A stretch of 48,744 nucleotides of DNA from a virus, in IMG/VR virus record IMGVR_UViG_3300045988_145890; one strand, given 5' to 3'. Made by a program: the position numbers and the translations under genes. This document shows, piece after piece, positions 4,254 through 48,744 of the stretch (position 1 is the stretch's first letter; each line of letters opens with the position of its first letter). The notes under the pieces were generated by a model. The model was not told where the DNA came from, did not search any database, and worked only from the letters and a program-made list of their open reading frames with translations.

Positions 4254-4712
4254 ATGAGATATAGGATCTATACAGATGGTTCTTGGAATAAAGAAAAAGA
4301 CATCGGTGGTTGGGCAATAGTAATTGCAGATCATCAAGGAATAAAGTTAAAATCAGGGTCAAAAAAAGGCACGACAAATAATCAAATGGAGTTAATGGCG
4401 GTCTTGAATGCATTAGAATATGCAGTAAGAAAGCATTTAAAAGACATAGAAATAATCACAGATTCTATGTATGTTTTAAATGGAGTAAAAAAATATGTAG
4501 ATACATGGAAAGCAAATAATTGGGTAGGACTTTCAGGTGATGAGATTAAATATAAATCACAATGGGAAGGAATACTTATTATGCTGGAAAGTTTAAAGGA
4601 AAATAATTTTTCTGTTAAGTTTTCTAAGGTAAAAGGACATGACGGAAATTCATTAAATGAGCTTGCAGACCTTAAAGCAAGGGAAGCAATTAAAGCATAT
4701 AAGGAGAAGTAA
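4254..4712 (+). CDS. rnhA: ribonuclease HI
   Basis: YTDGS...GGWA, NNQMELMA, IITDS and KGHDGNSLNELADLKA match the RNase H1 DEDD layout. Confidence 0.85.
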   Translation: MRYRIYTDGSWNKEKDIGGWAIVIADHQGIKLKSGSKKGTTNNQMELMAVLNALEYAVRKHLKDIEIITDSMYVLNGVKKYVDTWKANNWVGLSGDEIKYKSQWEGILIMLESLKENNFSVKFSKVKGHDGNSLNELADLKAREAIKAYKEK

Positions 4713-19980: not shown

Positions 19981-20586
19981 ATGGCAGAACCAAAAAGAGG
20001 TACAGAAGTTGCTATGATTGATGCATGCCTTGTTGTTATGAGGACAAAAGGAGAAACTGAACAGCAACTTGCACTAGATACAGCGTCTCAAGTTGAAGTT
20101 GCAATTGCTACAGAAACGACGGATGCGGTAAAACTTATTGTTAAAGGTAAGTTAATTGCTCAAAAGAAAGCTGTAACTACTGTTACCGGTAATACATTAA
20201 CATTAACAGATAATGTATTTAACTTTGAGCAGGCGAAAATTATTCAGGGTGGTACGTTGTACTATTGGACAGATAACGATCACACTTCTACACAGACAAC
20301 AAAAACAGAGTTTGGAATTGCAGGGTATGAACCACCTGTTGCTGGAAGCGCAGAAAAAGGGGAAGTATTTGACCTTGATCTTTATTCGGCAGTATATGAT
20401 ACCTCTGGTGATATTGTTCAGTATGAGAAGATTTCTTATCCGAATTGTACAGGACAGCCATTTGGTGTTGGTGCTCAGGATGATACATTTAATGTTAATG
20501 CAATCACAATTGATAGTGCTCCACCAAAAGGAAAGGCACCATATTCGATTATGACTGTTAAAGAACTTCCTGCAATTGCAGAGTAG
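19981..20586 (+). CDS. major tail protein
   Basis: 201 aa. Lies before the chaperone pair and the tape measure gene. Confidence 0.55.
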   Translation: MAEPKRGTEVAMIDACLVVMRTKGETEQQLALDTASQVEVAIATETTDAVKLIVKGKLIAQKKAVTTVTGNTLTLTDNVFNFEQAKIIQGGTLYYWTDNDHTSTQTTKTEFGIAGYEPPVAGSAEKGEVFDLDLYSAVYDTSGDIVQYEKISYPNCTGQPFGVGAQDDTFNVNAITIDSAPPKGKAPYSIMTVKELPAIAE

Positions 20587-34210: not shown

Positions 34211-35020
34211 ATGGGATTATTAGATAGAATGAAGCATGAAGCAGCAAAGTCCGGAGCAAGTAAAGGAAAGTTTATGTACTTTAGACCTGACGACAAAAAG
34301 CGAATTAGATTCTTGCAGGAATTGGATGATGGTTTAGAAATTCCATTTCATGACAATTTTGAAAGAGGAATAAATGTTCCATGTCAGGAAGTGTTCGGTA
34401 AAGATTGTCCATATTGTGAAGATGAAGATCTTAGAACAAGAAGCCAGTTTGCATTTTCTGTTTACGATTATGATGCAAAGGAAGTCAAGATTCTTATGCA
34501 GGCAGTAAATCAGTGTTCAGCAATTCCTGCACTTGTAAATATGGCAGAAACATATGGGACAATTACAGATCGTGATTATGTATTGAAGAAGACAGGTAAA
34601 GGTTCGACTTCAAGCTTTACAATTATCCCGATGGATAAGAACAAATTTAGAAATGAAAAAGCAAAACCGCTTTCCAAGAAAGCTTTGTTAAAGTATTTGA
34701 ATCAGGCTTTTCCTTGTGATGATTCTGAGGATGATTTAGAGGACGATGAAGATGATTACGAAGACAGTCATAAGAAACCTAATACAAAAAAGAAAAAGGC
34801 TTCTGAGGATGACTGGGATGATGAGGACAGTAAATCTGATTATTCAGATATGTCAGCACGTGAGCTTTACGATCTTTGCTGTGATCGTGACATCGAGTGC
34901 CAGAAGAAACGCCCGGCAAAATATTATATCAATTTGTTAAAAGAGGATGATGCAGTCCATGATGATTGGGACGATGAGGAAGATTCTGATGAAGATGAAT
35001 GGGAGGATGACGATGAATAA
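34211..35020 (+). CDS. putative ssDNA-binding protein (gp32-like) with acidic tail and HeH motif
   Basis: 269 aa. Cys cluster PCQEVFGKDCPYC. HeH-like motif SARELYDLCCDRDIECQKKRPAKYYINLL. Ends in DE-rich tracts. Confidence 0.4.
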   Translation: MGLLDRMKHEAAKSGASKGKFMYFRPDDKKRIRFLQELDDGLEIPFHDNFERGINVPCQEVFGKDCPYCEDEDLRTRSQFAFSVYDYDAKEVKILMQAVNQCSAIPALVNMAETYGTITDRDYVLKKTGKGSTSSFTIIPMDKNKFRNEKAKPLSKKALLKYLNQAFPCDDSEDDLEDDEDDYEDSHKKPNTKKKKASEDDWDDEDSKSDYSDMSARELYDLCCDRDIECQKKRPAKYYINLLKEDDAVHDDWDDEEDSDEDEWEDDDE

Positions 35021-35366
35021 ATCATTTACAGATTTTTTTAATGATCAGGTCACTTTTCAAAAAGAAGTCAATGAAAGATTTGGATATGGTGTAAGTGTAG
35101 AAAACATTCCAGAGGATAATGTTGAGATTGCAAAATACCATATGCTTGCGTTGATGGAAGAGACGGGTGAATTGGTAAAATCTGATAAGCGTTGGAAGAA
35201 TTATCGTAATACTCATTTCGATAAAAATAACAAGTTGGAAGAGCTTTCTGATTGCTTCATTACATTATTTAACGTTGCAATGTACAGCGGTATCTCAGCC
35301 GAAGAGATTGAATTAGCATTAACTAAAAAAATGGATGAGAACATGAAACGAATAAGGGAGGCCTAG
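35013..35366 (+). CDS. MazG-like all-alpha NTP pyrophosphohydrolase
   Basis: ATG 35013 follows GGGAGGA. Motifs LMEETGELVKS (EExxE) and EELSDCFITLFNVA. Confidence 0.6.
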   Translation: MNKSFTDFFNDQVTFQKEVNERFGYGVSVENIPEDNVEIAKYHMLALMEETGELVKSDKRWKNYRNTHFDKNNKLEELSDCFITLFNVAMYSGISAEEIELALTKKMDENMKRIREA

Positions 35367-35402
35367 TGCTTCCCTTTGCTATTATAAGGAGAATAAAAAA
35401 AA

Positions 35403-36395
35403 ATGAATAAATTAAAGTATAAAGTCGATAAAATTCTCAAAAATCAGTTGATAAGTGTACAAATAAACTTATTAAATGAATGTACAAGCAGATGTAAGAG
35501 TTGTAGAAGATACACTTGGCCAAAAGATAAGCTTAATCTTGATGATGTAAAAAGAATTGTAAATTTTTTGTATAATAAGTATAGGATTGAGTCAATTCTT
35601 TTTTCAGGAGGAGATCCAGTTTGTTATGATGAATTGGATAAAGTTATTGAATATTGTAGTGACTTAGGAATACATACAGCGTGTATTACGACGCTCATTA
35701 CTGAAGATGAGCATATTAAAGATGCATTAACAAAGACGGATAGATTATTTGTTTCATTTGATGCATTTGACAGAGAAAAATATAAGATTGTAAGAGGAGT
35801 AGATGGTTCAGAAATTGTAAAAGAAAATTTAAGAAGTTTAAATGTTTTAAGAAAAAGAAATGGAAAAGAAAAGATAAGATTAAGTATGACGGTAGGAAAG
35901 TTAAATTTAGATCAGGTTGAAAAAGTGTATGCTTTTTGCAAAGAAAATGATTTAAGTCTAAATTTTTATTTATTGCATACTTGGGATGATTTGATGATGT
36001 CAAAGGATGATCTTAAGTTATTTTTTGATATGATGAAGAAAATTTCAGAAGAAAGCTATATTATGACAAATGCAGGAAGCTTTTTTGAAAAAGAGGATAA
36101 GTTAAAAGAAAGCTTTGATTGCTATATTCCAAGAATAACATGTGCAATAAATGCAGATGGAAATGTTTTTCCTTGTTGTAAGCTATTTGATGAGAATAAC
36201 TTTTACAAAGATCAGCTAAAGTATTCATACGGCAATGTGTTACATGAAGATATGAATGAAGTATTCAGTAGAAGGCTTGCTATCGGATATCCTTTAGAAT
36301 GTAGCAATTGTAAAAGTTGCTTACCGCAATACATAAGTCCAATTAACTTTATGGATGATTTGTATAAGCATAAAGATGATGCAATATTCATGTAA
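35403..36395 (+). CDS. radical SAM enzyme with SPASM/twitch-like C-terminal Cys cluster
   Basis: CTSRCKSC (CxxxCxxC, Cys codons at 35481, 35493 and 35502), FSGGDPV, and C-terminal CYIPRITCAINADGNVFPCC and CSNCKSC. Confidence 0.8.
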   Translation: MNKLKYKVDKILKNQLISVQINLLNECTSRCKSCRRYTWPKDKLNLDDVKRIVNFLYNKYRIESILFSGGDPVCYDELDKVIEYCSDLGIHTACITTLITEDEHIKDALTKTDRLFVSFDAFDREKYKIVRGVDGSEIVKENLRSLNVLRKRNGKEKIRLSMTVGKLNLDQVEKVYAFCKENDLSLNFYLLHTWDDLMMSKDDLKLFFDMMKKISEESYIMTNAGSFFEKEDKLKESFDCYIPRITCAINADGNVFPCCKLFDENNFYKDQLKYSYGNVLHEDMNEVFSRRLAIGYPLECSNCKSCLPQYISPINFMDDLYKHKDDAIFM

Positions 36396-36407
36396 GAGGT
36401 GATTAGC

Positions 36408-36908
36408 ATGTTAATAATTGTAGAAGGAATTGACAGAGTCGGAAAAACAACATTATGTGAAATGTTGTCAAAGTCATTTGGTATTAAGATATTTAAGCAT
36501 GATTCTAAGTTGTTTAACCTAGACAAAATGGATAATGATAACGAGACCGATAAAGCAATTAAGATTTGTGAGATTTGCAAATTGCTAAATGGGACTTTAT
36601 TGTTGGATAGATCTTATTGGTCTGATTTTGTATATGGAGTTCTTGAAAGAAATTATTGCATATCAGATGCTTTGGATAATTTAAAAAAAATTGAAAGCAT
36701 ATATAAAGATGAAGCAGTAATAATATATGTTAGGCCTGTTGATTTAAAATTATCATCAAAGCTTCATGGTGCAGATTTGACAAAGTATAATGATTTATTT
36801 GAATCAGTAAGAAAAGGAACGAAATGTAAAGTTATAGATTGTACATATGAAAGTCTTGAAAAAGTCATAGTAGAATTAGAAAGTATTTTGGGTGATAAAA
36901 ATGAATGA
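36408..36908 (+). CDS. thymidylate-kinase-like dNMP kinase
   Basis: MLIIVEGIDRVGKTT P-loop typical of Tmk, plus DRSYWSDFVYG. ATG 36408 follows AAGAGGTGA. Confidence 0.65.
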   Translation: MLIIVEGIDRVGKTTLCEMLSKSFGIKIFKHDSKLFNLDKMDNDNETDKAIKICEICKLLNGTLLLDRSYWSDFVYGVLERNYCISDALDNLKKIESIYKDEAVIIYVRPVDLKLSSKLHGADLTKYNDLFESVRKGTKCKVIDCTYESLEKVIVELESILGDKNE

Positions 36909-37752
36909 CTTAATATATAAAGTTGGAGAAGCCAATTGCAATAAAGTATTTGATAAGAATGGCGGCTTTTATGAGTATAACTTGATAAAAAGTGAAATTA
37001 CAAAATTGTTGGATAATGGTTTGGAAAAATGCTTTGTTTTGGTAGGAGGAAATCTTTCGGATGAAAGTGAATATGAGAAGATTATAAGCCTCATAAAGAG
37101 AAAAAAAGATAAAGGATATAAAATAATATTTATTGTTACTGACTCTATATCATTAAAAGAAATGTCAATTGATGTAATAAAGAGATGCGATTTATTATTG
37201 CACCAAGCAGTCGGCTTTGTATTTGATAATATAGATATAGAGCAAAAGTATTCATATGTGCCGGAATTATTTTATGTAGATAATGAAAAGCCAAAAGTTC
37301 AAAATGATATGATTTTTTTTGGAGGAGGAAGCTATAATAGAGAGGATAAGATAAAAGAGTATCTTAGAAAAGACAATGAAATGAAAAAAGGAACATTTTC
37401 TATTATAAAGGATAGCTTAAATGATGAAAGAATAGACTATAGTTCATTGCAATTACTAATGAAAATGTTTAAATTTAGTTTAATTATTTGTAGAAAGGAA
37501 TACAGAGAGAATTATTGGTTTACTCCAAGATTTATTGAAGCTGTTAATAATTGGAGTTTACCAGTTTTAGATTTTGAATATAACAAAAATAGATTATATG
37601 AATCAATTGAAGTAAGTTCATACGATGAAATGATTTATATGATAAATTGTTGCGGTGAGGAAAGCAGAATAAATAGGATATTGGATTTAAGAAAAGAGAT
37701 TAAAAGTAACAAAGACAAATTTGCTAAAAATATAATTGATTTTTGTAAATAA
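36901..37752 (+). CDS. hypothetical 283-aa protein (weak glycosyltransferase-like resemblance)
   Basis: Overlaps the kinase gene by 8 nt. MIFFGGGSYNRE and WFTPRFIEAVNNWSLPVLD resemble exostosin/GT-B C-terminal motifs. By eye only. Confidence 0.5.
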   Translation: MNDLIYKVGEANCNKVFDKNGGFYEYNLIKSEITKLLDNGLEKCFVLVGGNLSDESEYEKIISLIKRKKDKGYKIIFIVTDSISLKEMSIDVIKRCDLLLHQAVGFVFDNIDIEQKYSYVPELFYVDNEKPKVQNDMIFFGGGSYNREDKIKEYLRKDNEMKKGTFSIIKDSLNDERIDYSSLQLLMKMFKFSLIICRKEYRENYWFTPRFIEAVNNWSLPVLDFEYNKNRLYESIEVSSYDEMIYMINCCGEESRINRILDLRKEIKSNKDKFAKNIIDFCK

Positions 37753-37767
37753 TGAAAGGAATTGCAA

Positions 37768-38475
37768 ATGTTAAGTAATGTAATTGTAAAAGGAGAATCT
37801 TTAGATGAAGTATGGCTTACTTGGTTTAAGCAAATGATAGATAATAAAATCTCAGAAGAAAGTAGAGATGGAGAAGTTGCATCAGAAATAATAAATGCAA
37901 TAACTGTTTTGGAAAATCCAACAAAGAACATAATGACTAATCAAGTAAGAAAGCTATCAATGAGATATGCTATCGGTGAAATGCTTTGGTATATGTCAGC
38001 TAATCCAAATTTGAGTGCAATCCAGCATTATACAAAAGCTTGGGATAGAATGTCAGATGATGGAGAAACAGTAAATAGTAATTATGGTTATATTATTAAA
38101 GAGGCATATAACTTTAATCAGTATGAGTATTGCAAACGGTTACTTATTAAAGACAAAAATAGTAGGCAGGCAATTATTCACATTAAGGTACCAAAAAATA
38201 CTTTGGAACAGCCTACAAAAGATTTAAACTGTACAGTTTGCTTACAATTTTTAATTAGAGAAAATAAACTATACTGTACAACATATATGAGAAGTAATGA
38301 CTTATGGTTAGGATTTCCGTATGATATTTTTCAGTTTACTTGTATTCAAGTAAGAATGGCAATGGAATTGGGATTGGAAATTGGAAGTTATACGCATATA
38401 GCTGGATCATTGCATATGTATAAAAGAGATTTCGATAAAGCAATTGAAAGATATAAGGAGGAAAATAATGTTTGA
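37768..38475 (+). CDS. thymidylate-synthase-family enzyme with Asp at the Asn177-equivalent position (predicted dCMP hydroxymethylase or methylase)
   Basis: Catalytic Cys in DLNCTVCLQF (38230), YMRSNDLWLGFPYDIFQF (Asp codon 38323-38325) and GSLHMY. 235 aa. Confidence 0.7.
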   Translation: MLSNVIVKGESLDEVWLTWFKQMIDNKISEESRDGEVASEIINAITVLENPTKNIMTNQVRKLSMRYAIGEMLWYMSANPNLSAIQHYTKAWDRMSDDGETVNSNYGYIIKEAYNFNQYEYCKRLLIKDKNSRQAIIHIKVPKNTLEQPTKDLNCTVCLQFLIRENKLYCTTYMRSNDLWLGFPYDIFQFTCIQVRMAMELGLEIGSYTHIAGSLHMYKRDFDKAIERYKEENNV

Positions 38476-41684: not shown

Positions 41685-42083
41685 ATGAGACTTTGGCATA
41701 TTGATTTGTTAGAGGTTTTACCAAGGCAGCAGCTATTATCACAATGGAGAGAATGCTGTTGCATAGCAAGAAATATCTATGCAAACGGTACACCAAATCA
41801 CTTGTTGGTAAATAAAATTTTAGATTATGACATTTCTGATTTTTATAGTTATTCAATTCTTGTATCAAATGAAATGCTTAGAAGAGGTTATAAAGTAGAT
41901 CGCAGTAAATTTGAAAAGTATTATAAATGTGATAGGTTTACAAGCAGACCATTTCCAGGTTGGCATAATAATAGATACTTTTTACAATGTTTTTGCAATT
42001 TACAAGAAAAGTATGATTGTGGAGGAATAACTGATAAGGAATGGTGTAAAGTAGTAAATAAATATTATGAAAGGAGTTGTTAA
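41685..42083 (+). CDS. pyrimidine-dimer DNA glycosylase-like (DenV/TIGR02328-like) protein
   Basis: The N-terminus MRLWHIDLLEVLPRQQLLSQWRECCCI matches the MRLWH...LPxxQLLgQxRE signature of this family. Confidence 0.6.
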   Translation: MRLWHIDLLEVLPRQQLLSQWRECCCIARNIYANGTPNHLLVNKILDYDISDFYSYSILVSNEMLRRGYKVDRSKFEKYYKCDRFTSRPFPGWHNNRYFLQCFCNLQEKYDCGGITDKEWCKVVNKYYERSC

Positions 42084-42481: not shown

Positions 42482-43429
42482 GTGGCAAAGACAAATAAGG
42501 AAATGATCATTAAGTTATGTAATGATATTAACAAAAAGAATGGTGAAGGAACAATTTACACCATAGGCAGTAAAAATGCTAATCTTAAGATTAAGAGATG
42601 GAGTACAGGGATTGAAGATCTTGATGCAATTATCGGTGGGGGTATGCCCGAAGGAAGAGTTGTTGAGATCTTTGGTCCAGAAAGTTCAGGCAAAACTACA
42701 TTACTTTATCATTTGTGTGGGCTTCATCAGTTATGCTTGGACGTTCCAATTGAAGGAACATTTGATGCAGAACGTGCAAAGGTGTTTGGGAATAGGCCAA
42801 AGCAAATGCTGATTTATCGTGCTAAGTATGGAGAGGATGCTTTCAATAAAACAATACAGTTTGCAAAAGCAGGTATTCCATTGATTGGCATTGATTCAGT
42901 ACCAAGCATGGTTCCAAAGGAAGATGCAGAAAAAGTATTGAAGTCTGCTGAGAAAGATTCCATTGAAGAACAGAGAATCGGAGGAACTGCAAGATTGATG
43001 AATAAGTATCTTCCGACAGTAGAAGAGATTATTGAGATCACCGGAACAACGTTGATATTCATAAATCAGGTTAGGGACAAAATGAATGCAATGTTGTTTG
43101 GAGAAAAGACAGATACTCCGGGAGGTAGAAAGTTAAAACATGCTTGTTCACTTCGTATTCAGGTAGCAAGAAGGGCATGGATTGAGATTCCTAACAAAGA
43201 TCCAAGAAACAGTGCAACTAGTAAAAAAGTTGGATTGATTATGAAATGTAAAGTGGTCAAGTCGAAAGTGTGCAATCCAATGGGAGAATGCGAGATTCCG
43301 CTTTTCTTTGATCGAGGATTCGTTTCGTTTGATGATGTTCAAAAGATCAGGAAAGAATTGATGGTTGCAGAAGCAGCAAAGTTTGGGAAGAGAGTTCCAA
43401 AAGAATTTATGGAGGATGAAGATGAATAA
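42482..43429 (+). CDS. recA: RecA-family recombinase
   Basis: GPESSGKTT Walker A, LIFINQVRDKM and TPGGRKLKHACSLRI. GTG start after GGAGG. Confidence 0.8.
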   Translation: MAKTNKEMIIKLCNDINKKNGEGTIYTIGSKNANLKIKRWSTGIEDLDAIIGGGMPEGRVVEIFGPESSGKTTLLYHLCGLHQLCLDVPIEGTFDAERAKVFGNRPKQMLIYRAKYGEDAFNKTIQFAKAGIPLIGIDSVPSMVPKEDAEKVLKSAEKDSIEEQRIGGTARLMNKYLPTVEEIIEITGTTLIFINQVRDKMNAMLFGEKTDTPGGRKLKHACSLRIQVARRAWIEIPNKDPRNSATSKKVGLIMKCKVVKSKVCNPMGECEIPLFFDRGFVSFDDVQKIRKELMVAEAAKFGKRVPKEFMEDEDE

Positions 43430-44639: not shown

Positions 44640-44771
44640 ATGGAATATAAATTATTGTGCTTTGGAAAACATGAAGATACAGTAAGATGCGGAATGTGCC
44701 CAGATGAAGGAACATGCGAATGCGAAACGAAATATCAGGGAGAAGAAAATGAAAAGAATAAGCAAAGATGA
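44640..44771 (+). CDS. hypothetical 43-aa Cys-rich protein
   Basis: TAATG-type overlap. MEYKLLCFGKHEDTVRCGMCPDEGTCECE... Confidence 0.35.
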   Translation: MEYKLLCFGKHEDTVRCGMCPDEGTCECETKYQGEENEKNKQR

Positions 44772-45198
44772 ATATTACTTAGGAATTGCATTAGCAGTAT
44801 CAAGAAGAAGTACGTGTTTAAAAAGACATTATGGTTGTGTTATTGTAAAGAATGATGAGATCATTGCTACAGGCTATAATGGATCACCAAGAGGAGAAGA
44901 AAACTGTTGCGATTTAGGTAAATGCAAAAGACTAAATGTTCCACATAATAGTGGTGATTATTCTGATTGTCATTCAGTTCATGCAGAACAAAATGCTATG
45001 TTGTCAACTAGTAGAAATGAAATGATTGGTGCAACAATGTATTTAGCTGGTGAAGAGAAGGCAGACTTTAGCCAAAGTTGTTGGTTCGATATAGAAGATG
45101 CTACTCCATGTCCTATCTGTGAAAGAATGATTAAGAATGCAGGAATTATTTCTGTAAAAAATGCAAAAAGTTGCAAAAACCTATTTACAAATGAGTAG
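44749..45198 (+). CDS. dCMP deaminase
   Basis: ATG 44749 follows GGGAGAAG. YYLGIALAVSRRSTC, zinc motifs HAEQNA and PCPICERMI. Confidence 0.85.
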   Translation: MKRISKDEYYLGIALAVSRRSTCLKRHYGCVIVKNDEIIATGYNGSPRGEENCCDLGKCKRLNVPHNSGDYSDCHSVHAEQNAMLSTSRNEMIGATMYLAGEEKADFSQSCWFDIEDATPCPICERMIKNAGIISVKNAKSCKNLFTNE

Positions 45199-45511: not shown

Positions 45512-46375
45512 TTGGGAATTATTGATGAAATTAAAAATAATGCTGTAAAGAGTGGAACAAAAATTCAAAGTTCAGATGCAGCAAAATTAGAAAAAATATT
45601 TAATAAAATGTTTTATACTGAACATAATATCGAAGAAGAAACAAAGTTCATACATCAGGTTATGACAAGAGGTCTTGAATCGCAGGAACGTGTAGGCCTA
45701 CATGCTTCATCATTGATTGTTGGTGATAAGGTGTGGTGTACAAGGCAGGAGGTTCTTAGCTTATTGTATAAGCAAGTTCAAAAGGAAAACACTTCTATAG
45801 GATTGTTAAGAATCTTTGAGGAAGGAAATGTAATTCATGAAAAGTGGCAAAGGTTATTGATTCGTGCTGGGTATGGTAAAGCAAAAACAATGGACCGGAC
45901 AAGATTTAATACTGAATATGAAGTATCATATACACCAGATATTGTTTGCAGAATTCCAGAGTTCTTTGATGGTGTAATGGTTGGAGAGATCAAGTCAGTC
46001 AATTCATTTAGCTTTAAGAAAATGACTGAACATCCAAGTGCAAAGAAACAGTTACAACTTTATATGTTTTTATGTATTCAAGAAGCAATGAAAAAAGGAA
46101 CATGGAACGGTAAAGACTACACAAAAGGATTTGTTCTTTGTGATTCGAAAAACGATCAGGACTTCAAACTATTCATTTATGATTATGACGAAGACTTTCT
46201 TTCTCCGTATATTGATCGTATGGAAGAGGTCAAGTATAGAAAAGAAAAGCTACTTCAGGAACATAAAATGATTCCAAGGTGCAAAGATTGTAAATCATGT
46301 GATTGCAAAAAAGCAATGGATTGTAATATGAGGAATGCATGTTGGGATGTTGGCTTCGGAAGGATTAAACTATGA
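45512..46375 (+). CDS. PD-(D/E)xK nuclease, Cas4/RecB-like, with C-terminal Cys cluster
   Basis: YTPDIVCR...GEIKSVNS (D...ExK). C-terminal CKDCKSCDC...C...C. TTG start 8 nt after AAGGAG. Confidence 0.55.
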   Translation: MGIIDEIKNNAVKSGTKIQSSDAAKLEKIFNKMFYTEHNIEEETKFIHQVMTRGLESQERVGLHASSLIVGDKVWCTRQEVLSLLYKQVQKENTSIGLLRIFEEGNVIHEKWQRLLIRAGYGKAKTMDRTRFNTEYEVSYTPDIVCRIPEFFDGVMVGEIKSVNSFSFKKMTEHPSAKKQLQLYMFLCIQEAMKKGTWNGKDYTKGFVLCDSKNDQDFKLFIYDYDEDFLSPYIDRMEEVKYRKEKLLQEHKMIPRCKDCKSCDCKKAMDCNMRNACWDVGFGRIKL

Positions 46376-48681: not shown

Positions 48682-48693
48682 AATAACATAATC

Positions 48694-48744
48694 AATTAAA
48701 TAATAAATTAAATAATAAATTAAATAATAAATTAAATAATAAAT
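48694..48744. repeat. 12-bp tandem repeat; duplicate of 1..51
   Basis: Exact identity to the window start. Confidence 0.95.

Follow-up and report, generated by a model that had tools for sequence, protein, structure and literature searches.

A Twitch-type radical SAM enzyme as a candidate tailoring enzyme in exchangeable glycosyltransferase cassettes of gut-anaerobe phages

What might a radical S-adenosylmethionine (SAM) enzyme be doing in a phage genome, between a nucleoside triphosphatase (NTPase) and a nucleotide kinase? The question is raised by an open reading frame (ORF) on the + strand of the viral record IMGVR_UViG_3300045988_145890, the whole 48,744-nucleotide stretch of which is referred to here as the window; its product is a 330-aa radical SAM enzyme for which we coin the name rSAM330. 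The explanation that we favour, with confidence that is evenly balanced, is that rSAM330 serves as an optional, accessory enzyme in the tailoring of DNA whose cytosine is C5-modified and glycosylated, the sugar or the side chain being its probable target. The more specific version, in which it acts by radical chemistry on glycosylated 5-hydroxymethylcytosine (5-hmC), or 5-hydroxycytosine, in DNA to give a hitherto undescribed base modification, is put forward tentatively. What we show is the class of enzyme, its cysteine pattern, the content of the operon and how the cassette behaves in related phages; the catalytic steps, the substrate and the product we infer.

The ORF begins with ATG, is preceded by the ribosome-binding site AAGGAG 8 nt 5' of the start, and lies where the ORF listing of an earlier sequence-only reading had placed it (Table 1). 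All of the motifs quoted in that reading are present i.e. CTSRCKSC (residues 27-34), GGDPV (69-73), CYIPRITCAINADGNVFPCC (240-259) and CSNCKSC (300-306). We aligned 35 family members to determine which of these residues are conserved. C27, C31 and C34, the predicted ligands of the SAM-cleaving cluster, are invariant in 35/35 members, as are G69 and G70 of the GGDP motif, with D71 and P72 conserved in at least 90%. Towards the C-terminus the invariant residues are C240, G253, C258, C259 and C306, and at least 90% of members share C303; the family also has several invariant basic residues (K3, R114, R131, R159 and R291) and a C-terminus of the form x-x-F-[FLIM]. The CX9-15GX4C element of SPASM domains is present (C240-x12-G253-x4-C258), but the CX5CX3C element and the terminal cysteine are absent from the alignment, in which no conserved cysteine follows C306. 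Because only C303-x2-C306 is conserved in this part of the protein and no later cysteine is, rSAM330 should not be classed as a full SPASM enzyme. The hairpin cysteine pair, C240 with C258 (or C259), and the CX2C pair C303/C306 are those of a Twitch domain, and judged by these residues the auxiliary domain would fit a Twitch-type truncated SPASM domain with ligands for a single cluster rather than the full seven-cysteine SPASM. The SPASM-like cysteines of the sequence-only reading therefore do mark a real auxiliary-cluster domain, but one that is Twitch-like with a single predicted cluster; the family does not conserve two of the cysteines in the window protein, C247 and C300. Two relatives (L014 and L016; such handles denote individual related loci) match the NCBIfam model N_Twi_rSAM via their C-terminal region, below its cutoff.

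Pfam recognizes the Radical_SAM domain (PF04055) at residues 21-178 (E=2.9e-14; score 54 bits, cutoff 29.5) and SPASM at residues 240-306 (E=3e-6; score 27.9 bits, cutoff 21.5). Foldseek aligns the AlphaFold2 model (mean pLDDT 93) to numerous solved structures of radical SAM enzymes at a probability of 1.0, the neighbours of the model in the PDB being SuiB, CteB, BlsE, viperin, SkfB, DesII, PqqE, anSME and MoaA, with E-values of 1e-15 to 1e-10 and identities of just 13-18%. BlsE is found amid many other radical SAM enzymes (Foldseek E=5.7e-13, TM 0.64/0.65 over the full length, 13% identity), and its sequence-profile match (8.5e-6) covers only the core. No curated equivalog was found in NCBIfam, where all matches lie 3- to 10-fold under the cutoffs, and PHROG gave no match. 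The sequence-only reading had proposed that the enzyme be placed among the radical SAM subfamilies by profile and structure searches, and these searches (NCBIfam, PHROG and Foldseek) gave no clear assignment to a known family. The MoaA model NF001199 reaches 52.7 bits against a cutoff of 231, and rSAM330 lacks a C-terminal GG; no entry for spore photoproduct lyase (SPL) was present among the 23 PDB sequence matches or the top 50 Foldseek matches. By these comparisons rSAM330 is neither a viperin, MoaA, NrdG or QueE nor an SPL-like enzyme such as M6 gp53.

A single-sequence search of 5.8 billion proteins returned ∼40 relatives, and a search with the family profile returned at least 128 homologous clusters at 90% identity, all unnamed, all of 327-351 aa and all metagenomic, on contigs of at most ∼57 kb. 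In an exhaustive profile search of 1.84 billion representatives, 103 proteins had E<=1e-30, and weaker matches merged gradually into generic SPASM enzymes. This search also returned proteins of 650-1900 aa with a related radical SAM domain, some of them with tandem domains; as Rosetta-stone fusions they were uninformative, their N-terminal parts having neither a Pfam match nor similarity to a glycosyltransferase or kinase. No isolate with rSAM330 was found in the phage collection, where megablast with the operon gave a single 49-nt match and tblastn with rSAM330 a single 22%-identical fragment. Matches in metagenome-assembled genomes (MAGs) were generic SPASM enzymes of at most 25% identity, except for one phage-like contig in a Bacteroidetes MAG (L054). 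On these searches the family appears to be an orphan confined to phages.

With ∼48.7 kb and genes for terminase, portal, major head and tape measure, the window represents a complete siphovirus-like genome. The operon around rSAM330 has the order MazG-like NTPase, rSAM330, thymidylate kinase (TMPK)-like deoxynucleoside monophosphate (dNMP) kinase, GT-B glycosyltransferase, ThyA homolog and DNA polymerase III (PolIII) alpha, and 5' of rSAM330 the NTPase is preceded by a DnaG-type primase and a single-stranded DNA-binding (SSB)-like protein. The sequence-only reading had described these neighbours as nucleotide-metabolism genes, which is borne out for the MazG-like NTPase and the TMPK-like kinase, but it had overlooked the glycosyltransferase. 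This 286-aa protein, GT286, is the most informative neighbour of rSAM330. It has no match in Pfam or PHROG, and its assignment, like all of the glycosyltransferase assignments here, denotes fold similarity. Its Foldseek search against the PDB is led by GtfC (9hua, 4.5e-5), followed by WaaA, GtfD, SdgB and MurG; among viral models in BFVD it has 42 matches at E<=1e-3, including group 1 glycosyltransferases, a Bacillus phage SP-15 glycosyltransferase and a 'DNA alpha-glucosyltransferase', and its homologue in L167 has a weak Glyco_trans_1_2 match. An identity as a T4 beta-glucosyltransferase, with which GT286 seemed to have motifs in common, was considered and dropped, since phmmer against the PDB returned nothing and the T4 enzyme was outside the Foldseek top 50. 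The modelled fold suggests that GT286 may be a DNA glycosyltransferase acting on 5-hmC.

The ThyA homolog has as its top PDB matches the CMP hydroxymethylase MilA (1e-28) and T4 dCMP hydroxymethylase (1e-14). In E. coli ThyA numbering L143 and N177 are each replaced by D and D169 is kept, which by the criteria of PMC13326640 would mean a cytosine substrate and a hydroxymethyl product, without the signature of a 5-hydroxy-dCMP synthase. These residues and best matches agree with the dCMP-type assignment made in the sequence-only reading. The kinase contains a P-loop (GIDRVGKTT) and a DR motif, and its family profile matches SPbeta YorR best in the PDB (4.5e-14), followed by thymidylate kinases; by analogy it may serve as a 5-hm-dCMP kinase. 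The MazG-like protein, whose PHROG family carries the label 'nucleoside triphosphate pyrophosphohydrolase', may act as a dCTPase and so supply the pathway with dCMP, T4 gp56 being the analogue. The SSB-like gene ends in a long, acidic D/E-rich tail that the MazG ORF, as called, overlaps in another frame, and the true MazG start is probably 3' of 34947, near the methionine of MNKSF. A dCMP deaminase encoded elsewhere in the window would supply dUMP for dTMP synthesis, as an accessory to a T4-like replacement of dC. Taken together, the gene content of the window appears to parallel the replacement of dC by glycosylated 5-hmC in T4.

We collected related loci via both the radical SAM gene and the kinase gene and scored every ORF, called mechanically, against the window proteins and the proteins of alternative cassettes. 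This gave 80 distinct kinase-bearing loci on one backbone, in the order primase, SSB, MazG, kinase, variable cassette, C5 enzyme and PolIII alpha, with the MazG-like gene 5' of the kinase and cassette in most of them. The cassettes were GT407 + ThyA (13 distinct loci); rSAM2, a 281-aa radical SAM/SPASM protein, + GT407 + ThyA (11); rSAM330 + GT286 + ThyA, the type in the window (9); an L014-like radical SAM protein + the GT4-like GT376 + ThyA (9); ThyX only (7); GT286 + ThyA with no radical SAM gene (6); GT336 + a U32-family protein with no radical SAM gene (3); rSAM330 + GT336 + a U32-family protein (2); and rSAM330 + rSAM2 + GT407 + ThyA (1), the remaining 19 loci having other or truncated cassettes. 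rSAM330 is therefore optional in the cassette. The module of MazG, glycosyltransferase, radical SAM enzyme, kinase and ThyA homolog also occurs, in varying order, on an unrelated PrimPol/SNF2 backbone. One locus with that backbone (L002) encodes a phage SAM synthetase 4 kb 5' of the radical SAM module, which would fit heavy, stoichiometric use of SAM; the sister loci L165 and L166 have no such gene in the range examined.

The kinase was present without any radical SAM gene in 43 of the 80 loci, and the kinases adjoining rSAM330 are dispersed over the kinase tree, among those of cassettes lacking a radical SAM gene, with no clade of their own. The kinase is therefore a backbone gene, and a role as dedicated partner of the radical SAM enzyme was ruled out. 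This removes the position between NTPase and kinase as a clue to function, which the sequence-only reading had taken it to be, as the MazG-kinase pair belongs to the backbone. What rSAM330 tracks is glycosyltransferases: one lies within 5 kb in 12 of the 13 distinct rSAM330 loci, and the thirteenth (L054) ends 1.1 kb after the radical SAM gene and carries UDP-galactopyranose mutase (UGM). Of these 13 loci, 12 have the gene set of the window operon (34947-38475). Two other radical SAM subfamilies behave likewise, with rSAM2 paired with GT407 in 13/14 loci and the L014-like protein with GT376 in 9/11, while none of the seven ThyX-only cassettes, which have no glycosyltransferase, contains a radical SAM gene. 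Other accessory genes found in the same slot in relatives encode sugar-nucleotide enzymes (UGM, cytidylyltransferase and HAD/sugar-kinase-like proteins). The C5 enzyme that accompanies rSAM330 is either a ThyA homolog or a U32-family protein, and since rSAM330 co-occurs with both, the radical SAM step is placed downstream of the synthesis of the C5 handle.

Two pairs of phages allow the cassettes to be compared on nearly identical backgrounds. The window and L093, the contig of which is IMGVR_UViG_3300045988_095505, have flanking genes that are 85-94% identical, but between MazG and ThyA the window has rSAM330, the kinase and GT286 (35403-37752) whereas L093 has a kinase that is only 43% identical and GT407. 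In L004 and L090 the primase, SSB, MazG and U32 proteins are 92-98% identical, but the kinases are 53% and the glycosyltransferases 41% identical, and only L004 has the radical SAM gene. Near-isogenic phages thus differ by a swapped kinase-glycosyltransferase(-radical SAM) cassette, and the interval from MazG to the C5 enzyme is a recombination hot spot.

The pathway that we propose would start with (i) conversion of dCTP to dCMP by the MazG-like enzyme, followed by (ii) conversion of dCMP to 5-hm-dCMP by the ThyA homolog and (iii) formation of 5-hm-dCTP by the dNMP kinase and the host nucleoside diphosphate kinase. In (iv) the phage PolIII alpha would put 5-hm-dCTP into DNA and in (v) the GT-B enzyme would glycosylate the 5-hmC on DNA. 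rSAM330 would then (vi) cleave SAM reductively, the resulting 5'-deoxyadenosyl radical taking a hydrogen atom from the side chain at C5, with the attached sugar as the most probable site, either on DNA or, less likely, on the nucleoside diphosphate (NDP)-sugar donor, and (vii) the auxiliary cluster would accept an electron or anchor the substrate. The sugar would be remodelled by oxidation, dehydration, decarboxylation or epimerisation and could escape recognition by the modification-dependent nucleases of the host; if the substrate is the DNA residue, the sugar adduct formed may be a keto, deoxy, decarboxylated or cyclised one. We slightly prefer the DNA-linked sugar to the donor because GT286 proteins from phages with and without the radical SAM gene interleave in their tree i.e. 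the glycosyltransferase shows no visible adaptation to rSAM330, as it might if it had to accept a new donor. Co-evolution of the glycosyltransferase with rSAM330, which would favour remodelling of the donor, is for the same reason unsupported. The sequence-only reading had suggested that the enzyme remodels the 5-substituent or a nucleotide-sugar donor, and the comparative genomics agrees with that proposal except that the GT286 tree speaks against the donor.

Several results weigh against the favoured explanation. The interleaving of GT286 is one of them, as an unrelated function of rSAM330 predicts the same pattern. Distant relatives of rSAM330 (21-26% identity) are found in clusters that have no glycosyltransferase but contain ThyX, HD phosphohydrolase, deoxyribosyltransferase and MazG genes, and these clusters look like nucleotide-level pathways. 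A jumbo-phage lineage keeps the kinase, the radical SAM gene and a gene for a protein like uracil-DNA glycosylase (UDG) with no glycosyltransferase or ThyA gene within 7 kb. The structure search gives no specific match, its list being headed by maturases of peptides that are synthesized ribosomally and then modified post-translationally (RiPPs) at the same low identities as all of the other matches, and the co-occurrence counts given above are not phylogenetically independent. Finally, the isoelectric point of rSAM330 gives no hint of DNA binding; we discarded it as an indicator, as it does not discriminate (the values for the putative DNA glycosyltransferases are also near neutral or acidic).

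The alternative that survives best, which we nevertheless consider unlikely, is that rSAM330 acts before replication, on dCMP, 5-hm-dCMP or the triphosphate, changing the C5 substituent (e.g. CH2OH to CHO by an anSME/BtrN-type dehydrogenation) or another position, and that the kinase phosphorylates the product. The gene order fits this, as rSAM330 is contiguous with a TMPK-like kinase in all of its loci, on three different backbones, and in both of the cassette swaps described above the kinase was exchanged along with the radical SAM gene and the glycosyltransferase gene. The distant relatives in clusters without a glycosyltransferase and the jumbo-phage lineage would also be accounted for; the structural neighbours include two enzymes that use nucleoside triphosphates, viperin and MoaA, and the invariant lysine and arginine residues could bind phosphates. 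However, the adjacent kinase is the same backbone gene that is found in the 43 loci lacking a radical SAM gene, and it forms no separate clade beside rSAM330. rSAM330 is combined with both ThyA-type and U32-type C5 enzymes, the products of which would differ, and this does not sit easily with a reaction specific for one C5 substituent. If the C5 group were converted to a formyl or another altered group, the hydroxyl needed by the co-occurring glycosyltransferase would moreover be lost, and GT286 is common to phages with and without the radical SAM gene.

An improbable alternative is that rSAM330 is a maturase or activase, modifying a phage or host protein or peptide or activating a glycyl-radical enzyme. 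Its best matches do include enzymes of this kind (SuiB, CteB, SkfB, PqqE and anSME by Foldseek and PDB sequence search), and the top NCBIfam match is to a metalloenzyme maturase family, that of a tungsten-cofactor maturase, but the latter reaches only 64 bits against a cutoff of 380 and, like all of the NCBIfam matches, is far under the cutoff for its family. The radical SAM core begins at about residue 17, and neither Pfam nor the AlphaFold2 model has an N-terminal RiPP recognition element or other peptide-recognition domain. Neither a conserved small ORF nor a glycyl-radical enzyme was found beside the radical SAM gene in any locus, and no neighbours other than nucleotide and glycosylation genes are constant.

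The adjacency of a radical SAM enzyme and a kinase has a precedent in viperin/CMPK2 and in the pVip-kinase pairs of prokaryotes. rSAM330 and the kinase might by this precedent make a modified (d)NTP directed against host polymerases or defence rather than destined for phage DNA, and the core does resemble viperin (PDB profile ∼1e-10, Foldseek ∼1e-12). This alternative is likewise improbable: the prokaryotic viperin model NF038283 (viperin_w_prok) reaches 41.4 bits, its cutoff being 180, and matches only in the core (residues 19-171), viperins have no auxiliary cluster whereas the cluster cysteines of rSAM330 are invariant, the kinase is not specific to the radical SAM gene, and the radical SAM gene tracks glycosyltransferase cassettes. 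An NrdG-type activase or a QueE-type 7-deazaguanine synthase is effectively refuted, in line with the sequence-only reading, to which the protein looked like neither, since the similarity is that of the generic radical SAM core (35.4 bits for the NrdG2 model TIGR02495 against a cutoff of 131, with QueE outside the best 25 of the 48 NCBIfam families matched), a protein of 330 aa with a Twitch domain is unlike NrdG, and NrdD, QueC, QueD and FolE had no match among the scanned window ORFs (those not scanned are of at most 201 aa, the largest at 19981-20586) and were not seen in the related loci that have Pfam annotations or were queried directly.

The closest cultured relatives of the window phage infect strict gut anaerobes, Agathobaculum and Clostridium_AP, which is compatible with an oxygen-sensitive enzyme. 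In one group of relatives a Peptidase_U32-family protein of ∼361 aa replaces the ThyA homolog directly 5' of PolIII alpha and is paired with the glycosyltransferase-like GT336; the protein in L004 reaches 34.2 bits in Pfam against a cutoff of 22.4. Enzymes of the U32 family are oxygen-independent hydroxylases that act on C5 of RNA pyrimidines and on ubiquinone. Aerobic phages, on the other hand, make 5-hydroxy-dCMP via an O2/flavin-dependent ThyA homolog (PMC13326640). Because the U32 hydroxylases are independent of oxygen and this ThyA homolog is not, the U32 protein may represent an undescribed anaerobic route to glycosylated 5-hydroxycytosine DNA; our literature search found no description of such a route.

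At least two further radical SAM/SPASM-Twitch subfamilies occupy the same slot in related phages, rSAM2 (e.g. in L011, which carries two radical SAM genes) and the L014-like proteins (also in L102, L107, L111 and others), and L160 also has a radical SAM/SPASM-Twitch gene there; these other subfamilies have no curated family match. UGM genes lie beside kinase, glycosyltransferase and radical SAM genes in L054 (Pfam GLF 9.7e-28) and L160, which implies galactofuranose as the DNA-linked sugar in some relatives, a sugar that has been proposed in this role for Pootjesviridae (PMC13326640). UDG-superfamily (family 4-like) proteins are encoded directly beside the kinase-radical SAM pair in four loci listed in Table 1, and they recur across several lineages, including the jumbo-phage lineage with no nearby glycosyltransferase or ThyA. 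L018, L021, L027, L095, L113, L124, L144 and others, with this backbone or a different one, carry ThyX homologs, sometimes two, with a FAD-binding protein of ∼300 aa and with HAD-like, HD/YfbR-like and nucleoside 2-deoxyribosyltransferase-like proteins, locally a SAM methyltransferase and often a distant radical SAM/SPASM protein as well; these clusters look like a second family of pyrimidine-modification cassettes that has no glycosyltransferases.

Two cultured phages were among the related loci. Agathobaculum phage AB434P2 (L163, OP172633.1) has a PolIII that is 67% identical to that of the window and a different cassette, comprising a kinase, a 366-aa HAD-like plus kinase-like protein, a 151-aa cytidylyltransferase-like protein, a 328-aa glycosyltransferase-like protein, a ThyA homolog and a 361-aa glycosyltransferase-like protein. 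Its ThyA homolog is annotated 'deoxyuridylate hydroxymethyltransferase' yet has the cytosine-type PYD motif, and the phage is a tractable isolate for glycosylated hmC in this group. In Clostridium phage CS266P3 (L164) PolIII alpha is split in two ORFs, with an I-HmuI-like homing endonuclease annotated between them. In the window itself the same AT-rich tandem motif, AATTAAATAATAAAT repeated, is found at positions 1-55 and 48690-48744, which suggests that the genome is complete and terminally redundant or that the assembly is a closed circle. All of the plausible genes are on the + strand, the GC skew is +0.18 to +0.40 in every 2-kb interval and the G+C content is 28-39%. Other genes in the window encode a DenV-like pyrimidine-dimer DNA glycosylase, RNase H, a Cas4-domain exonuclease and RecA.

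Table 1. Features of the window and of related loci. Positions count from the first nucleotide of the window or of the locus named.
Feature	Location	Strand	Basis or remark
rSAM330 gene	window 35403-36395	+	330-aa radical SAM enzyme with Twitch-type auxiliary-cluster domain
CX3CX2C (C27, C31, C34)	window 35481-35504	+	predicted to ligate the SAM-cleaving [4Fe-4S] cluster
GGDP, counterpart of the 'GGE' SAM-binding motif	window 35607-35618	+	family alignment
Twitch-like auxiliary-cluster region, C240-x12-G253-x4-C258-C259 ... C303-x2-C306	window 36120-36320	+	family alignment
MazG/dUTPase_2-like NTP pyrophosphatase	window 34947-35366	+	Pfam dUTPase_2 28.2 bits, cutoff 22.9; PHROG 173, 7e-11
TMPK-like dNMP kinase, GTG start	window 36399-36908	+	PHROG 761 'thymidylate kinase', 1.2e-13
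GT-B-fold glycosyltransferase GT286, 286 aa	window 36892-37752	+	AlphaFold2 mean pLDDT 90, Foldseek, BFVD
ThyA homolog, predicted dCMP 5-hydroxymethylase type	window 37762-38475	+	Pfam Thymidylat_synt, 1.5e-27
dCMP deaminase	window 44704-45198	+	Pfam dCMP_cyt_deam_1, 3.3e-17
SSB-like gene	window 34211-35020	+	
DenV-like pyrimidine-dimer DNA glycosylase	window 41685-42083	+	Pfam, 1.8e-17
RNase H	window 4254-4712	+	3.3e-31
Cas4-domain exonuclease	window 45512-46375	+	PHROG, 2.6e-14
RecA	window 42482-43429	+	1.7e-43
U32-family proteins	L004 10035-11120; L090 3668-4762; L092 7489-8586; L146 ~7497; L168 8551-9633		
rSAM2	L011 8515-9360		
L014-like radical SAM protein	L014 6923-8023		
Radical SAM/SPASM-Twitch gene	L160 8287-9348		
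UGM	L054 5036-6172; L160 5009-6010		
UDG-superfamily (family 4-like) proteins	L014 6233-6913; L054 4332-5039; L016 7987-8601; L013 8220-8843		
SAM synthetase	L002 2933-3955		
Segment compared with the window	L093 6001-7645		
Segments compared with each other	L004 7481-10045; L090 2182-3684		
AB434P2 cassette	L163 769-5582		
Split PolIII alpha of CS266P3	L164 6989-10555		

New nucleic-acid chemistry, DNA that resists restriction and enzymes for use as tools can all be drawn from the hypermodified DNA of phages, and nearly all of the cytosine pathways characterised to date are from hosts grown aerobically, with enzymes that tolerate or require oxygen. The phages described here form a large group of gut Clostridia phages with a hypervariable cassette in which glycosyltransferases are combined with three uncharacterised radical SAM subfamilies and, in some, a U32 protein takes the place of ThyA; this diversity points to an unexplored anaerobic toolkit for DNA modification. 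If the more specific version of our explanation is correct, rSAM330 would be the first SPASM/Twitch radical SAM enzyme shown to act on DNA and would catalyse the first radical SAM step in cytosine hypermodification, as one of three subfamilies shuffled as cassettes by phages of anaerobes against modification-dependent restriction. If it remodels a DNA-linked sugar, radical SAM chemistry would gain a new class of substrate and part of the gut arms race with type IV restriction would be explained. The near-isogenic genomes with and without the radical SAM gene, together with the cultured relatives on Agathobaculum and Clostridium_AP, are natural material for such comparisons.

The closest parallel for the operon as a whole is the replacement of dC in T4, where gp56 (dCTPase), gp42 (dCMP hydroxymethylase), gp1 (dNMP kinase), cd (dCMP deaminase) and the alpha- and beta-glucosyltransferases provide the same set of activities as is predicted for the window. 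However, the window proteins are only distantly related to those of T4, the kinase being TMPK/YorR-like rather than gp1-like and the NTPase dUTPase_2/MazG-like; the host of the window phage would be a strict anaerobe; and T4 has no radical SAM tailoring enzyme, its sole radical SAM protein being NrdG, which works with NrdD.

The architecture of rSAM330 matches that of the Twitch/SPASM radical SAM enzymes that act on sugars and nucleosides i.e. BtrN (a dehydrogenase), BlsE/MilG (cytosylglucuronate decarboxylase), DesII (TDP-sugar deaminase/dehydrogenase) and MoaA (GTP 3',8-cyclase). With these it shares a partial TIM-barrel core, a length of ∼330 aa, the lack of a RiPP recognition element and a C-terminal hairpin cysteine pair followed by CX2C, and the Foldseek E-values for the Twitch/SPASM enzymes of this class are 1e-13 to 1e-10. 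A hairpin cysteine pair with CX2C is the ligand pattern of the single auxiliary cluster in BtrN, and a ThyA-like CMP hydroxymethylase (MilA), a glycosyltransferase and a radical SAM enzyme are likewise found together in the pathways to mildiomycin and blasticidin. rSAM330 differs from all of these enzymes in its low identity to them (13-18%), in having conserved residues of its own, in its apparent confinement to phages and in NCBIfam scores that are far under the cutoffs.

The glycosylation clusters for 5-hydroxycytosine and 5-hmC in RB69, DLP3 and RL38JI (PMC13326640) follow the same logic, with a ThyA homolog that hydroxylates or hydroxymethylates dCMP at C5, its cognate dNMP kinase and DNA glycosyltransferases acting in turn, and with phage sugar-nucleotide enzymes such as UGM, found here in L054 and L160, supplying the donors. 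The enzymes of those clusters are of the classical, oxygen-tolerant kind and their hydroxylating ThyA homolog depends on flavin and O2, whereas the ThyA homolog of the window keeps D169 and does not have the 5-hydroxy-dCMP-synthase signature. Radical SAM enzymes are not mentioned in the work on glycosylated 5hmC and 5hoC DNA (PMC13326640; bioRxiv 2023.12.21.572611; PMC8256090), and we found no description in the searchable full-text literature of such an enzyme in a cytosine glycosylation cluster. The sequence-only reading had called the combination undescribed; this holds as far as that literature goes, but radical SAM chemistry in phage pyrimidine hypermodification has a precedent in gp53 of the Pseudomonas phage M6, an SPL-like radical SAM isomerase that acts on glycine-modified thymidine in DNA (PMC8989533). 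A phage DNA hypermodification cluster is thus itself known, and we rate as novel the orphan Twitch-type family as a tailoring enzyme in phages of anaerobes. Both gp53 and rSAM330 are phage radical SAM enzymes in clusters for pyrimidine C5 hypermodification, where, once the 5-hydroxymethylpyrimidine carries an attached group, they would provide optional 'sculpting'; gp53, however, is related to SPL and has no auxiliary-cluster domain, whereas the enzyme of the window is of the SPASM/Twitch type and belongs to a putative cytosine glycosylation cassette.

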